A DNA stretch of 64,000 bases from Gammaproteobacteria bacterium (GTDB taxonomy: Bacteria; Pseudomonadota; Gammaproteobacteria; G965277405), in the NCBI GenBank assembly GCA_965277405.1, contig OZ255726.1, positions 832,001-896,000 on the forward strand. The letters are read 5' to 3'. Shown here piece by piece: positions 53,064 through 64,000 of this stretch; position 1 is the first letter of the stretch, and each line of letters opens with the position of its first letter. Both the position numbers and the translations under genes were made by a program. The notes under the pieces were generated by a model. That model searched no databases. It was not told the DNA's origin and saw nothing but the letters and a program-made list of their open reading frames with translations.

Positions 53064-54067
53064 TTATGTGTTAAATTCAGGGATGATGTGTCGACCATAG
53101 TTAGCGATGATTTTTTCTTCATCGCCGCTGTCTAAGTAGATATTAAACTGGGTTATTCCTGCGGTTTCTAGGTCTTTAATTTTGGCGATATGGTCAGCTA
53201 CGCTACCGAGTACGCAGAAACTGGTAACGATATCATCGGTGATGAAGTCCAAAAAGGGTTGTCACTTTGTCCGTGTTTAGAGTAGTCATACCCTTTACGA
53301 TTGTCGATGTAGTCCGTTAGGCTTTTAGGTACAATTCCTGAATCGCTGCCGTATTTTTCAACGATATCAGCGACGTGATTCCCCACCATCGCCGGGAACC
53401 ATTTGGTGTGTTGTATACAGTAATCCATATCACCAAAATAAGCTGGTGCAGCGGCTAGTACTTTAAAAGCAGACATATCGCGCCCCGCCTCTTCCCCAGC
53501 GCTAATGGCTTGGTTTTTAAACCATGTAATTAGATTTGGGTCGGCAATTTGTAACACCAAGCCATCCCCAACTTGCCCTGCGGTTGCCAGCGCCTTTGGA
53601 CCATACGCAGCAATCCATACTGGCAATTCATACCCCGTCGACCAGGGGAATTGCACACTAGCAGGGCATGCGTCATATTCCACTTGTTCGCCGCGCACCA
53701 TGGCTTTAACCTTAGTGGTAAATTCAGCAAGACGCGCCAAGGTGGCGGGCTTTTTCCCCATAACCCGCATAGAAGAATCGCCGCGACCTAGGGCAATGTC
53801 GAAGCGTCCATTGCTTTGATGCGCCAAACTAGCGTACAAGCTGGCAGCCAATGACCAATCGCGAATATTGGGGTTGGTCACACAGGGACCGAACCTCATA
53901 GTTGTGGTGTGTTCCATACACATTGCCATCGCGACAAACGACTCACGCCATAGAATATGCGAATCATAAAACCAACAGTAATCAAAGCCTGCCACTTCTG
54001 CTTGACGCACCAATTTACGGGCACGATCTGGGCTAACGAACCCTTTAAACGTAATACCAAATTCCAT
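53064..54067 (-). CDS. F420-dependent LLM-class oxidoreductase (CPS_4043/TIGR03842-like), one-base frameshift at T5 53251-53255
   Basis: MEFGITFKG, YDSHILW, GPCVTNP, GRGDS, AAYGPKAL; the C-terminus continues as LDFITDD in the next frame. Confidence 0.82.
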
Positions 54068-54089
54068 AATATTATCCTCTGTGTGTTGT

Positions 54090-54845
54090 TTAAGTCGGTT
54101 TGCAATCACCTTGTTTTGGGGTGAATTCTGCTGGTGGACAGACCCGAATGCCTGCATGGGTGAAGGGTACGTCTTTTGAGATATTCAACCGAATCAAGAT
54201 AGGTGTCAGCGCTTCGATGCAGCGCGCGCTTTCTGCCAAGCCTGCGTTGTAGGCCTTTGTCCCGATTTTTTCGATTAAAGCCATGACTCGTTTTTTCGCC
54301 GCTAGGTTATTGCCGCACACCAAAATGTCGCAATTGATCGAGCGGGTCAGGTCGTTTAAAGTGTCCGCCGCAACATTATGCAACGCGCCTACAACCGCAA
54401 CGCTTTCTCCTAGCAACGCTTGGGCTGATTCCGTAATTGAGCCAGCCGCTGGCATAATTACCGCTTTGGGGTTGCCTGGCACGAGCGGTACCACTATGTC
54501 TACTAAGGTTTTCCCAAGCAGAAAAGGTGCTAATGTTGCAAGTGTGGTATCGTGAGCGCTGTGAGGAACAGCAAGAATGACAATATCATCAGCCGCCTGC
54601 GCAGCCTCCTCCATACTCAAGCCAATGATGTCTGCATTATTATTGTCTGGCTGTTCGGTTAAGATTTTTAGCAATTTTTGCGCGCTGGCTTGGGATCTTT
54701 TTGGATCGCGCGAGCCGAGGACCACGCTGACGCCGGCCATCGCAAAACGCAGTGCCAAACCACTACCTTGTGGCCCCGTGCCACCAATAATAGCGACTTT
54801 TGGCGTTGCTTCTTTCTCCAGTTGTTGTTTCATTGCTGCTTTCAT
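54090..54845 (-). CDS. npdG: NADPH-dependent F420 reductase
   Basis: [41 protein letters not shown]. Confidence 0.88.
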
Positions 54846-55633
54846 CGAAATAAATCCTCAGTCTGGGGACGGATAAGATCGCGACTTGAGTTGTCGGTTG
54901 TTGTCCAAGATAGGCCGCGGAAAATAATCACAGGAGTTTTAGCATTTTTTTTCATCAACAACCCCGACGCGGCAGCCAATTCGTCGCTAAAGGCAGGTGC
55001 GGTAACACTTAAATGCCGTCCAAAAGCATCAACCTCTCCTGCCATGTACATTACAGCTGGCACATTAGCTAGACCAATAGCCACATTTGTTTGTCCCAAG
55101 CGCCACGGCCTGCCAAAGGTATCGCTGATCACTATTCCCAAGCGACAAGCGAAGTGCTCCTCTAATTTTTGGCAGAGATTTCGTGCGCTTTTATCAGGGT
55201 CTTTAGGTAATACAATCAGTTGACCAGGATGATTAGCGTTCGACTCATCGACCGCCGCATTGGCACAAATATAGCCATTTTTATGCTCGGTAATCAGCAC
55301 TCCTTCCTGTTGATCTTGGCGTTTAATTGCGCGAATAATCCGGGTTGATTGAGATAAAATAACGGCAACTTTACGCGGATCTTTGTTAATCGTTTTCGCC
55401 AGCTCAATCGCCTCTTGGCTCGGTGTTACTCGGTCTAAATAAATACATGCCCCTTCGGTTTTAGAGACCACCTTATGGGCGACAACCAAGATATCGCCTG
55501 CCAATAAGCGTTGCTGATTGACCGTCAGCGCTGCGATAATACTGCAGGCTAGGTCGTCACCTTGGTTAAAATCGGGCAGCCCAGCCACCTGAAATATAGA
55601 AATGCAGTTGCTGGTGGACAACGAATCAGCCAT
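54842..55633 (-). CDS. cofE: F420-0:gamma-glutamyl ligase
   Basis: [36 protein letters not shown]. Confidence 0.93.
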
Positions 55634-61208: not shown

Positions 61209-61250
61209 TTTTGAATGATAATTAAACATTAAACAAAGTGGAGAAGCAAT

Positions 61251-62735
61251 ATGACCAGTAAAGCTGTAAACGTAGGTGATTTTTATGAATTAGAGGTTGG
61301 TAACGATCTTAAGCAAAGTACAGCATACAACGACGACTTGGCGCCGACAAAAATAAAACAACGGACTTGGAATAAATGGAATATCGGCGCGTTATGGGTC
61401 GGGATGTCGATTTGTGTACCTACCTATACATTAGGTGGGGTGTTGACCGCCTATTTTGGGCTATCAGTGATGGAGGCCTTGTTGGCAATCCTTATCGCCA
61501 ACATCGTAGTGCTCGTTCCACTCACGTTAAATGCTTACCCAGGCACTAAGTTTGGCATTCCTTTTCCTGTGTTATTGCGGTCGTCATTCGGCGTGGTTGG
61601 CTCTAACATTCCTTGTTTAATCCGCGCTCTCGTCGCTTGTGGCTGGTTTGGCATTCAAACCATGTTCGGCGGTTTAGCGATCCATTTATTCTTATCTGCG
61701 CTTTCAGATGGCTGGGCAAGTCTCGGCGGTTTTGGTGAGGTAATCGGTTTCTTCATTTTTTGGCTACTCAACTTGTACGTGGTCATCCGCGGTGCAGAGT
61801 CGATCAAGTGGATGGAAACCTTGTCCGCGCCGCTGTTGTTAATCGTCGCGATTGGTTTAATGTTCTGGGCAAGCGGGAAAGTATCTTTAATCGAAGTCAT
61901 AACATCACCTGCTAATCGCCCTGCTGACGCTGGCTTTTGGGGTTACTTTTTTAGTGGTATAACGGCTATGGTAGGGTTCTGGGCAACATTATCATTGAAT
62001 ATTCCTGATTTCAGTCGTTACGCAAAATCACAAAAAGATCAGGTTATTGGTCAAATTATCGGGCTACCGCTGACGATGTTCTTTTTCTCAGCTTTAGGCG
62101 TGGTACTAACCGCCGCTTCAATGAGTTTAGTCGGCGAAACAATTGCTGATCCAATTACTTTGATTGGTAAAATAGACAGCCCTTTTTGGGTCGCAACGGC
62201 GATGGTGTTGATCGTTATCGCAACACTTTCAACCAATACGGCAGCCAACATCGTCTCTCCCACCAACGACTTCCAAAACATTGCCCCTAAACACATCAAT
62301 CACTTTCGTGGCGCTGTATTGACAGGCTTAGTCGGTATCGTGCTAATGGGCTGGGAACTGCTGAAAAAAATAGGTTGGTTGACGACTGAGGTAAGTTTAG
62401 AAAGTATGTACTCAAACTGGCTGTTAGGGTATTCCAGTCTACTAGGTCCTATCGCTGGGATCATGATTGTCGACTACTTCCTAATCAAACGTCAGCAATT
62501 GGATTTGGTCGGGTTGTATACCCCAAATAGCGTATACCCTGCTTTTAATAGCTCTGGATTGATCGCTTTTGCCGTACCGGTGGTAATGACATTGATCGCT
62601 TTAAGTTATCCTGCCGTTAATTGGTTCTACAGCTATGGTTGGTTCACGGGAGCATTCACAGGCGCTATCGTGTACTACGTGCTTGCTAAAATGCAAACGT
62701 CTACCTTGAGCCAAGCCACTGCGTTGCCATCTTAA
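61251..62735 (+). CDS. NCS1 nucleobase:cation symporter
   Basis: YNDDLAP, GIPFPVLLRSSFG, WATLSLNIPDFSRY, NTAANIVSP. Confidence 0.93.
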   Translation: MTSKAVNVGDFYELEVGNDLKQSTAYNDDLAPTKIKQRTWNKWNIGALWVGMSICVPTYTLGGVLTAYFGLSVMEALLAILIANIVVLVPLTLNAYPGTKFGIPFPVLLRSSFGVVGSNIPCLIRALVACGWFGIQTMFGGLAIHLFLSALSDGWASLGGFGEVIGFFIFWLLNLYVVIRGAESIKWMETLSAPLLLIVAIGLMFWASGKVSLIEVITSPANRPADAGFWGYFFSGITAMVGFWATLSLNIPDFSRYAKSQKDQVIGQIIGLPLTMFFFSALGVVLTAASMSLVGETIADPITLIGKIDSPFWVATAMVLIVIATLSTNTAANIVSPTNDFQNIAPKHINHFRGAVLTGLVGIVLMGWELLKKIGWLTTEVSLESMYSNWLLGYSSLLGPIAGIMIVDYFLIKRQQLDLVGLYTPNSVYPAFNSSGLIAFAVPVVMTLIALSYPAVNWFYSYGWFTGAFTGAIVYYVLAKMQTSTLSQATALPS

Positions 62736-62852
62736 TTAATTTTACTTGTTAGCGTTCTTTTGATAGCTAATGTTTGTATCAAATCATCGCTGATGCAGAT
62801 GTTGTTGCGAAGTGGTTCACTGTTGATTTTAATTTAAAAGAAGGACGGAGCT

Positions 62853-64000
62853 ATGACCCTGTTTATTAAAGGGGGGACTATTGTCACCCACGAAGTAACG
62901 TATCAAGCCGACATTGCATGTGATGGCAATAAAATCACCGAGATAGCTCAGCAAATCACGCCACCGCATGCTGCTGAAGTGATAGACGCAACGGGGAAAT
63001 ATATCATGCCTGGAGGCATCGACCCGCATACCCATATGCAGCTTCCATTCATGGGAACAGTTGCCAAAGATGACTTTGCCTCAGGAACTATTGCAGCATT
63101 GGCTGGTGGCACCACCAGCATTATCGATTTTGTCATTCCAAACCCGCAGCAATCTTTGTTGGAGGCCTACCATAAATGGCGCGGATGGGCAGAAAAATCC
63201 CATGCAAACTATGGCTTTCATGTTGCTATTACTTGGTGGGATGACAGCGTCGCCGCAGAAATGGAAGAACTCGTGAACGACTACGGAGTGAACAGCTTCA
63301 AACACTTCATGGCTTACAAAAATGCTATCATGGCGACCGATGACATTTTGATTCCAAGTTTTGCTAAATGCTTAGACCTTGGCGCGATACCAACCGTTCA
63401 TGCAGAGAATGGCGAGTTGGTGTATTACTTGCAAAATAAGCTCATTGCCGATGGTCTGACTGGTCCAGAGGGTCACGCATTGTCGCGCCCGGCTGCTGTA
63501 GAAGGGGAAGCTGCGAATAGGGCTATCAGCATCGCCAATACTCTAGGCGCACCGATTTATCTTGTCCACGTTTCTACGGAAGAAGCTGTAGCTGCGATTC
63601 GCTACGCAAGAAACAACGGCCAAACCGTATTTGGCGAAGTATTGGCAGGCCACTTAACAGTCGATGACAGCGTCTATCAAAACCCAGATTGGGGCACTGC
63701 TGCGGCACACGTGATGAGTCCGCCGTTTAGACCTAAACACCACCAAGATGCTCTTTGGAAAGCCATACAAGCAGGAACATTACAAACCACTGCTACCGAC
63801 CACTGCGCCTTTTGTACAGAACAAAAAGCAATGGGTAGAGATAATTTTACCCAAATTCCAAACGGTACTGCTGGGGTAGAAGAACGGATGATGGTATTGT
63901 GGGAAAAAGGCGTGAATGCGGGCAAAATTACCCCCAATGAATTTGTGGCGCTCACTTCAACCAATACCGCGAGAATATTCAATATATACCCAGACAAAGG
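62853..64000 (+). CDS. hydA: Dihydropyrimidinase (runs off window end)
   Basis: Manual translation [11 protein letters not shown]...[46 protein letters not shown]. Confidence 0.93.

Follow-up and report, generated by a model that had tools for sequence, protein, structure and literature searches.

A luciferase-like oxidoreductase (LLM) of the TIGR03842 (CPS_4043-type) family, encoded at the end of a cofactor F420 operon in a gammaproteobacterial genome, is probably (we put the probability at roughly 0.7) an F420H2-dependent uracil/thymine reductase, fed by the NADPH-dependent F420 reductase NpdG and standing in for dihydropyrimidine dehydrogenase. The gene lies in the 64,000 nucleotides at positions 832,001 to 896,000 of contig OZ255726.1 (assembly GCA_965277405.1), hereafter the window, whose numbering is used for coordinates unless another is given. 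Judged by its gene content and sequence relationships, the region 53064-64292 (about 11.2 kb, running past the window end) appears to be an island for reductive pyrimidine catabolism that was acquired as a unit. The first-pass annotation of the window had proposed that LLM, supplied by NpdG, replaces dihydropyrimidine dehydrogenase, and this reading, at the strength just given, is now supported comparatively by the absence of the genes preT and preA (preTA), by the linkage and co-occurrence of LLM with dihydropyrimidinase (DHP), and by the regulator found in related islands.

In the proposed pathway, the NCS1 permease would take up uracil and/or thymine, CofG, CofH, CofC, CofD and CofE would produce F420, and NpdG (Fno) would reduce F420 by using NADPH. 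LLM, a putative TIM-barrel hydride transferase resembling the F420-dependent methylene-tetrahydromethanopterin reductase Mer, would transfer the F420H2 hydride to pyrimidine C6, with protonation of C5, to yield 5,6-dihydrouracil or 5,6-dihydrothymine. DHP would open the dihydropyrimidine ring, and the M20 amidohydrolase would convert the product to beta-alanine (or beta-aminoisobutyrate), NH3 and CO2. PreTA/PydA, which employs FAD, FMN and iron-sulfur centers, would be replaced by a non-homologous two-enzyme F420 relay consisting of NpdG and LLM. Here we infer on which substrate and in which direction LLM acts, how hydride and proton are transferred, and that uracil induces the system. The benefit for marine bacteria of an iron-sulfur-free first step is speculative.

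The island and the search for a canonical dihydropyrimidine dehydrogenase

Gene calls were scored by NCBIfam models against their curated cut-offs (given below as bits score / cut-off) and by Pfam profiles. The features of the island are as follows.

53064-54067, minus strand: LLM, TIGR03842 (CPS_4043-type) luciferase-like oxidoreductase; 419.2 / 295.45
54090-54845, minus strand: npdG (Fno), NADPH-dependent F420 reductase; TIGR01915, 194 / 150
54842-55633, minus strand: cofE, F420-0:gamma-glutamyl ligase, 263 aa; TIGR01916, 256 / 181
55626-56333, minus strand: cofC, guanylyltransferase of F420 biosynthesis; TIGR03552, 153 / 105
56333-57292, minus strand: cofD, 2-phospho-L-lactate transferase; TIGR01819, 280.5 / 257
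57286-58491, minus strand: cofH, FO synthase subunit (radical S-adenosylmethionine [SAM] enzyme); TIGR03551, 489 / 374; Pfam CofH_C
58485-59762, minus strand: cofG, FO synthase subunit (radical SAM), first gene of the F420 operon; TIGR03550, 449 / 213
59763-59876, no strand: divergent intergenic region of 114 bp between cofG and the M20 gene
59877-61208, plus strand: M20-family amidohydrolase, N-carbamoyl-beta-alanine (beta-ureidopropionase) type; NF006769, 580 / 452; TIGR01879, 405 bits
61251-62735, plus strand: NCS1-family nucleobase:cation symporter; Pfam Transp_cyt_pur, 311 bits; TIGR00800, 319, under the cut-off of 353
62853-64000, full gene to 64292 past the window end, plus strand: DHP; TIGR02033, 578 / 393 (full gene, L002:854-2293)

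These scores bear out the gene order and identities given in the first-pass annotation, namely cofG-cofH-cofD-cofC-cofE-npdG-LLM divergent from amidohydrolase-NCS1-dihydropyrimidinase. The seven minus-strand genes form an operon in which neighbors overlap by 1-8 bases (7 bases for cofG/cofH) or are separated by a 22-base gap, and the products of all five F420 genes (CofG, CofH, CofC, CofD and CofE) exceeded the curated cut-offs. CofE is a single-domain protein whose sole Pfam match is F420_ligase (residues 19-240), with no fused nitroreductase-like domain, and a profile scan of the island proteins found no such domain within the island. For the M20 enzyme, the closest functionally named solved structure was N-carbamoyl-beta-alanine amidohydrolase 8c46 (414 bits), the top matches being unnamed amidases; the enzyme scored 279 bits against yeast beta-alanine synthase and 169 bits against allantoate amidohydrolase. 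Its predicted role is the third pathway step, as an amidohydrolase of the beta-ureidopropionase type, and the NCS1 permease is likely a pyrimidine importer.

The first-pass annotation had noted that preT and preA were lacking within the window, and this observation was confirmed and extended: neither PreA nor PreT was found in the window or in the whole genome (a single contig of 2,174,577 bases, 98% complete) when it was searched with DHO_dh and Fer4_20 profiles and by tblastn. The sole DHO_dh gene in the genome encodes a quinone-type PyrD, and the sole Fer4_20 gene encodes a GltD-family protein adjoining fbp. When verified Ruegeria PreA and PreT were used as tblastn queries, only PyrD (25% identity) and the GltD-family protein (32%) were recovered. 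Because DHP and a beta-ureidopropionase-type amidohydrolase are present and PreA/PreT is absent, the first step of the pathway is left without a canonical enzyme. Moreover, LLM is the sole Bac_luciferase-family gene of the genome, and no DNA photolyase able to use FO was found in the genome by homology search; NpdG and LLM therefore appear to be the only recognizable users of the F420 encoded beside them. The GltD-family protein is itself a small subunit of 469 aa (L004:520-1929, contig positions approximately 211317-212726) encoded beside fructose-1,6-bisphosphatase, and no glutamate synthase large subunit was seen within the 3.3 kb inspected.

Linkage, co-occurrence and regulation in related genomes

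To place the island in a wider context, one genome per species was scanned, which gave 382 relatives of LLM; genomic context was taken from the best 80 of these (70-90% identical). The neighborhood was defined as 10 kb on each side of LLM, and the 1,329 neighboring open reading frames were clustered and the frequent clusters annotated. The best 80 comprised Gammaproteobacteria (about 30 Marinomonas, together with Bermanella, Oceanospirillum, Vibrio, Alteromonas, Thalassolituus, Amphritea, Marinobacterium, Pseudohongiella and Halieaceae), Alphaproteobacteria (Ruegeria, Limimaricola, Cohaesibacter, Ahrensia and other Hyphomicrobiales) and Betaproteobacteria (Herbaspirillum, Paraburkholderia and Trinickia). 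LLM was single-copy in all 80 genomes. Of the 80 loci, 65-69 had the cof genes and npdG inside the 10-kb flanks; the M20 gene was this close in 43 loci and NCS1 in 38. Counted in the same way DHP appeared in only 9 loci, which is an artefact of the flank length, and whole-genome positions were used for this gene instead. A whole-genome search detected DHP in 76 of the 80 genomes (75 over the cut-off), the four without it being metagenome bins. LLM and DHP were located on one contig, 100-17,895 bp apart, in 61 of the 80 genomes, and most of the other 19 were interrupted by contig ends. This linkage is kept across at least seven gene orders; in one Halieaceae bin (L068, order NCS1< DHP> LLM> RutR<), DHP and LLM are separated by a gap of 100 bp with no cof gene between them.

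Less frequent neighbors were also recorded in the 80 loci. They included an AptA-like omega-aminotransferase (16/80), a LysR regulator (17/80), a CoA-acylating methylmalonate-semialdehyde dehydrogenase (4/80), a nitrilase-superfamily amidase beside NCS1-DHP (3/80), cytidine deaminase with thymidine phosphorylase (2/80), PntA (5/80) and PntB (3/80) for NADPH supply, and RibA (3/80) for supply of the FO precursor. All these neighbors, and the RutR-like regulator described below, fit uptake, generation or breakdown of uracil and thymine, or provision of NADPH and FO precursor. In two Amphritea islands (L078 and L082), RibA, PntA and PntB are placed between LLM and DHP, as if FO precursor and NADPH were co-provisioned.

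The relation between PreA and LLM was then considered within the same 80 genomes. A DHO_dh match was present in 79 of them and was nearly always full-length, as expected for PyrD; most second matches were short and weak (<40 bits). A full-length second DHO_dh gene of PreA type was found in four genomes (G066, G068, G070 and G073), with scores of 106-112 bits and frames of 434-489 aa. Two other second copies were PyrD-like (G043 and G070), and the sole DHO_dh match of G064 was a PyrD-1B/PyrK fusion interrupted by a contig end. The gene of G068 (Ruegeria atlantica) was verified as PreA (NF006183, 720 bits / 335) and lies in the order PreT-PreA-x-M20-DHP; those of G066, G070 and G073 were assigned to the PreA type by score, frame length and position only. 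In all four genomes a DHP copy lies at a distance of 2-3.5 kb from the PreA-type gene, and their contig is not the one that carries LLM; G068 and G070 also have a separate DHP beside LLM. Each DHP copy is thus paired with either PreA or LLM where positions are known. Ruegeria atlantica holds both sets, the PreT-PreA-x-M20-DHP cluster and an F420/LLM island with its own M20 gene and DHP.

An evenly drawn sample of the class was too sparse in LLM (1/400) for a contingency table, and the GTDB family of Marinomonas (64 genomes) was used instead. In this family, LLM was present in 36 genomes and DHP in 36: both genes occurred in 35, LLM only in 1 (a bin), DHP only in 1 (at a contig end) and neither in 27. 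The co-occurrence analysis that the first-pass annotation had called for therefore gave agreement between LLM and DHP presence in 62 of the 64 genomes, and LLM and DHP have been gained and lost jointly in the Marinomonas family. In the seven LLM-positive family genomes outside the best 80, DHP lies 9.7-10 kb from LLM. PreA (NF006183) was found in 0 of the 64 genomes at E <= 1e-40. It had been stated beforehand that the hypothesis would fail if preTA always accompanied the cluster and LLM were dispensable; as to the first half of this clause, PreA-like genes occurred in 4/80 and 0/64 genomes in the two sets.

In the class sample, CofD was found in 16 of 401 genomes, and LLM exceeded its cut-off in 1 of 400, which is the genome described here. 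The earlier statement that F420 is uncommon in gammaproteobacteria agrees with the CofD count, although F420 is not tied to LLM across the class.

A gene for a RutR-like TetR regulator was present in 58 of the 80 loci; in most of these it directly precedes cofG on the same strand (M20< RutR> cofG>). The Marinomonas regulator scored 158 bits against Escherichia coli RutR. As described for RutR in PMC4325133, uracil is stacked between W77 and W167, in a pocket completed by L74 and L78, and thymine is kept out in E. coli by L78. Among the 58 island regulators, the W77 position was Trp in 57 and the W167 position was Trp in all 58; the L74 position was L, V, I or M, and the L78 position was I in 30, L in 17, V in 6, M in 2, T in 2 and K in 1. 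These residues fit a pyrimidine effector and would leave room for thymine. The window island itself appears to have lost the regulator gene. A perfect 22-bp tandem duplication (59741-59784) spans the cofG start, where relatives carry the RutR-like gene, and it may be a scar of that loss. A search for RutR operators with an E. coli consensus gave three window matches with three mismatches, versus 3.75 expected, none of them in the divergent intergenic region.

Type, integrity and origin of the LLM gene

Against NCBIfam, LLM matched F420-class models and not FMN-class ones. The closest solved chains were those of Mer (E 1e-28, 103 bits, full length), followed by hydroxymycolate dehydrogenase (fHMAD, 45 bits), Adf (34 bits) and FGD (34 bits). 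An AlphaFold model was considered for a Marinomonas orthologue that is 89% identical to the window protein (predicted local distance difference test score [pLDDT] 85.4, predicted template modeling score 0.87). The top eight Protein Data Bank (PDB) matches of this orthologue model were all Mer (template modeling [TM] scores 0.78-0.84, 25-29% identity); the FMN luciferases ranked lower, after FGD2, Adf and FGD1. LLM is thus predicted to be a luciferase-like TIM barrel nearest the F420-dependent members. LxmJ, a reductase encoded in the lexapeptide gene cluster, reduces the C=C bond of dehydroalanine. In PMC8518648, the 'reductase' clade of the F420 LLMs includes Mer, LxmJ and the ketoreductase fPKR. 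By analogy, transfer of hydride from F420H2 to C6 with a proton added at C5 is chemically and phylogenetically plausible.

In the window sequence, the LLM frame is broken in a run of five A (plus strand) near 53250-53255. The frame stops after '...KHGQSDNP' and resumes in another frame as 'FLDFITDD...' up to the stop at 53064, and the window copy covers positions 1-268 of the 329 of the TIGR03842 profile. An intact Marinomonas orthologue reads '...KHGQSDNPFLDFITED...' without a break at this position; the main LLM fragment is 89% identical to it and the 65-aa C-terminal fragment, in the other frame, 80%. None of the 80 orthologues examined contained an internal stop. Logan contigs, which are read-derived, cover the stretch in three public runs, and all three carry one additional A behind 53250 (word depths 32.3, 301.1 and 2); all three runs are from a single study, in which the source sample may have been among those sequenced. 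Because this additional A restores the frame common to all orthologues, the LLM gene is intact in the organism, and the break is an assembly error (a typical homopolymer slip) rather than a pseudogene. The first-pass annotation, which had spoken of a frame-corrected LLM, was right that the frameshift is real in the window sequence, but no correction is needed in the organism. In the orthologue model, the pLDDT is 54-74 over residues 261-280, the site of the break, and mostly 85-98 from residue 281 on. The C-terminal portion is modeled there with confidence and is integral to the barrel. Separately, long open frames around LLM in some high-GC genomes (490-815 aa) were considered as fusions and rejected; the two loci inspected (L058 and L077) contained overlapping stop-free high-GC frames.

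The genome is the sole member of its order in the genome collection (2.17 Mb, one contig). When its proteins were compared with those of Marinomonas profundimaris, the identities of housekeeping proteins were 58% (LeuS), 59% (PNPase) and 54% (LpxC), whereas those of island proteins were 84% (CofG), 84% (CofH), 70% (CofD), 62% (CofC), 77% (CofE), 73% (NpdG), 89% (LLM), 84% (M20), 82% (NCS1) and 81% (DHP). Because island proteins are 62-89% identical to Marinomonas versus 54-59% for the housekeeping proteins, both divergent operons appear to have arrived together by horizontal transfer from a Marinomonas-like donor, and they are therefore treated as one functional unit. The G+C content is about 0.44-0.46 in the flanks and 0.47-0.50 in the operon. 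More generally, the identity of this genome's housekeeping proteins to their counterparts in Marinomonas, Oceanospirillum, Alteromonas and Vibrio is only 48-60%.

The surroundings of the island were also inspected. Downstream of DHP, no oxidoreductase gene was seen: the genes there are fur, lpxC, sbcB, one for a RihA-like pyrimidine nucleoside hydrolase, tolB and others. The RihA/UriH-like gene (L002:5651-6820) is located outside the window, about 3.4 kb past DHP, and its product has an N-terminal extension of about 73 residues ahead of the family match; a ribokinase-family gene (L002:9469-10620) is found further on. The two could supply uracil and ribose from uridine. At the other end of the island, in the gap that separates the ends of holA and LLM, is a 31-base element (window 53017-53047) that occurs in about 126 copies in the 2.17-Mb genome (<=4 substitutions; 70 forward, 56 reverse); the sequencing runs also contain it as 31-33-base contigs of very high depth. 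The element resembles a dispersed intergenic repeat family of the repetitive extragenic palindromic (REP) or miniature inverted-repeat transposable element (MITE) kind. A promoter/terminator scan was uninformative, with 17 promoter-like sites versus 17.7 expected, and no RNA data set was listed as containing the stretch.

Alternatives and comparison with known systems

Other explanations for the island were also weighed. LLM might act on a different N-heterocycle, such as a hydantoin, a ring of the orotate or barbiturate type, or a pyrimidine with a 5-substituent or another modification, with DHP and the M20 enzyme serving as hydantoinase and carbamoylase. Both families do include D-hydantoinases and N-carbamoyl-amino-acid hydrolases, and the best-matching NCBIfam models are named 'D-hydantoinase/dihydropyrimidinase' and 'hydantoinase/carbamoylase family amidase'; the NCS1 permease does not reach the cut-off of any specific model, the regulator residue aligned with RutR L78 varies, and in four of the 80 genomes the island exists beside a PreTA-type set. 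We nevertheless consider this explanation unlikely, since both uracil-stacking tryptophans are kept in the regulators, the neighboring genes (for beta-alanine aminotransferase, (methyl)malonate-semialdehyde dehydrogenase, cytidine deaminase and thymidine phosphorylase) suit uracil and thymine, and the M20 enzyme resembles N-carbamoyl-beta-alanine amidohydrolase and beta-alanine synthase more closely than it does L-carbamoylase or allantoate amidohydrolase. It would also leave 76 of the 80 genomes with a DHP but without a route to its canonical substrate.

It is more doubtful still that LLM acts at another point of the pathway, either as an F420H2-dependent reductase that turns malonate semialdehyde into 3-hydroxypropionate or in an oxidative direction that would yield NADPH via NpdG, while dihydropyrimidines are imported or uracil is reduced by an unrecognized enzyme. 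The extended Pyd and Rut pathways end with a semialdehyde reductase, and dehydrogenases of alcohols, sugar phosphates and hydroxymycolate are among the characterized F420 LLMs, as is a ketoreductase. However, the dehydrogenase-type enzymes (Adf, FGD and fHMAD) scored 34-45 bits against LLM, versus 103 for Mer; many islands, this one included, encode no aminotransferase that would form the semialdehyde, and others carry a CoA-acylating semialdehyde dehydrogenase, so that no reductase would be needed. The conserved core of LLM, F420 genes, DHP and carbamoylase leaves only the first step unfilled. The chance that the linkage has no functional meaning, an unrelated F420/LLM operon travelling with an operon for DHP, carbamoylase and permease because the two were at some time joined on a mobile island, is slight. 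The island has clearly moved between lineages, as the identities of 62-89% versus 54-59% attest, and close kinship is common among the 80 genomes, Marinomonas accounting for about 30. Yet the linkage persists in Gamma-, Alpha- and Betaproteobacteria across at least seven rearranged orders, a pyrimidine-type regulator is situated just upstream of cofG in most relatives, LLM in L068 lies 100 bp from DHP without cof genes, the presence or absence of LLM and DHP agrees in 62 of 64 genomes of one family, and PreA occurs only where a second DHP exists.

Several points weigh against the assignment of LLM as the uracil/thymine reductase. PreTA-like genes and the LLM island occur together in four of the 80 genomes, and the substrates of the two systems may differ, so that they would not be strict equivalents. 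The related genomes are kin, and the co-occurrence counts overstate the number of independent events. Because the 15 other CofD genomes of the class sample lack an LLM over the cut-off, F420 has other uses in the class. The window island lacks an aminotransferase and a semialdehyde dehydrogenase, a homologue of methylmalonate-semialdehyde dehydrogenase (56% identical) being found only elsewhere in the genome, and by tblastn a RutR homologue was absent from both the island and the whole genome. The absence of a canonical reductase rests on homology searches (DHO_dh, Fer4_20 and the PreA model); a non-homologous uracil reductase, or import of already reduced dihydropyrimidines or hydantoins, may be conceived. 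Mer, the nearest solved relative, is an enzyme of archaeal C1 metabolism that acts on a pterin-bound methylene/C1 unit and not on a C=C bond. In open-access papers and bioRxiv, we found no biochemical or genetic test of any TIGR03842 member, which agrees with the first-pass statement that CPS_4043-type LLMs are biochemically uncharacterized, and in the same sources no paper linking F420 to pyrimidine catabolism was found. Finally, SSGG-03002 / NpsU, the Streptomyces enzyme compared below, gave no product in the in vitro assays from oxidized to reduced uracil form that are reported in PMC10714638.

If LLM is the F420H2-dependent uracil/thymine reductase, F420 would be the hydride carrier of the first step of pyrimidine breakdown, probably induced by uracil, and the question of why Proteobacteria make F420 would have an answer. 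That question is listed as unanswered in a 2021 review of F420, where traces only are noted in two Alphaproteobacteria (PMC8498797). If F420 serves only pyrimidine reduction, this would be the first physiological role assigned to it in Proteobacteria and would explain the trace amounts of F420 in uninduced cultures of some of them. Whether the idea can be taken this far is about an even bet: in these Proteobacteria, F420 would exist essentially for pyrimidine ring reduction, the cof pathway would belong to a uracil-controlled regulon with a RutR-type repressor before cofG, and LLM with Fno, as a substitute for dihydropyrimidine dehydrogenase free of iron-sulfur clusters, would be spreading horizontally on an island of 11-18 kb among mostly marine Gamma-, Alpha- and Betaproteobacteria. 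The assignment would also give TIGR03842 a function across at least 382 species-level genomes, and it would provide an oxygen-tolerant uracil/thymine reductase without iron-sulfur clusters, of possible use in biocatalysis and in work on fluoropyrimidine metabolism. Current annotation pipelines would rate such organisms as lacking the reductive pyrimidine pathway.

Among known systems, the pathway position proposed for LLM, ahead of DHP and beta-ureidopropionase, is held by the NAD(P)H-dependent PreT/PreA (PydA) and by the clostridial ferredoxin-dependent PydAc; variation of the electron donor at the uracil/thymine reduction step has precedent, as described in PMC7332683. In four genomes a PreA-type gene adjoins a DHP copy, as LLM does. 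PreA is a DHO_dh-fold FMN protein, to which the PreT/PreA enzyme adds FAD and iron-sulfur (Fdx) domains, and it has no homology to LLM. LLM, in contrast, has no recognizable iron-sulfur or nucleotide-binding domain and requires a separate NADPH:F420 oxidoreductase and five cofactor-biosynthesis genes. The closest solved full-length relative of LLM is Mer (PDB 1z69, 1f07, 8qpl and others), which falls in the same 'reductase' clade as outlined in PMC8518648; on LLM, however, the Mer NCBIfam models scored far under their cut-offs (105 versus 276 and 94 versus 349), and the gene context is entirely different.

Two putative F420 enzymes offer functional parallels. In Chloroflexota, a putative F420 'yanthine reductase' (PF00296) of the reductive uric acid pathway is encoded beside a ring-opening amidohydrolase, in place of YgfK or the PydA homologue UacX (PMC12507026). 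This proposal, bioinformatic and drawn only from gene neighborhoods, concerns a purine pathway and another phylum; no F420 variant of the pyrimidine pathway is described in the sections of PMC12507026 drawn on here. In Streptomyces, SSGG-03002 / NpsU of mureidomycin/napsamycin biosynthesis, a putative F420/FMN oxidoreductase, is reported in PMC10714638 to reduce the uracil-ring C5=C6 bond of mureidomycins in vivo. This enzyme carries out antibiotic tailoring on a uridyl peptide.

RutA is a member of the luciferase-like superfamily as well, an FMN-dependent pyrimidine monooxygenase that uses uracil and is controlled by RutR. Unlike the enzyme proposed here, RutA opens the ring oxidatively with FMN and O2 and has no need of DHP. 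The known forms of the first reductive step employ NADPH, NADH or ferredoxin, all on a DHO_dh/iron-sulfur scaffold, whereas the form proposed here would combine another fold with another cofactor. The proposal is a variant of a known pathway, drawn from a known enzyme class without an assigned function.

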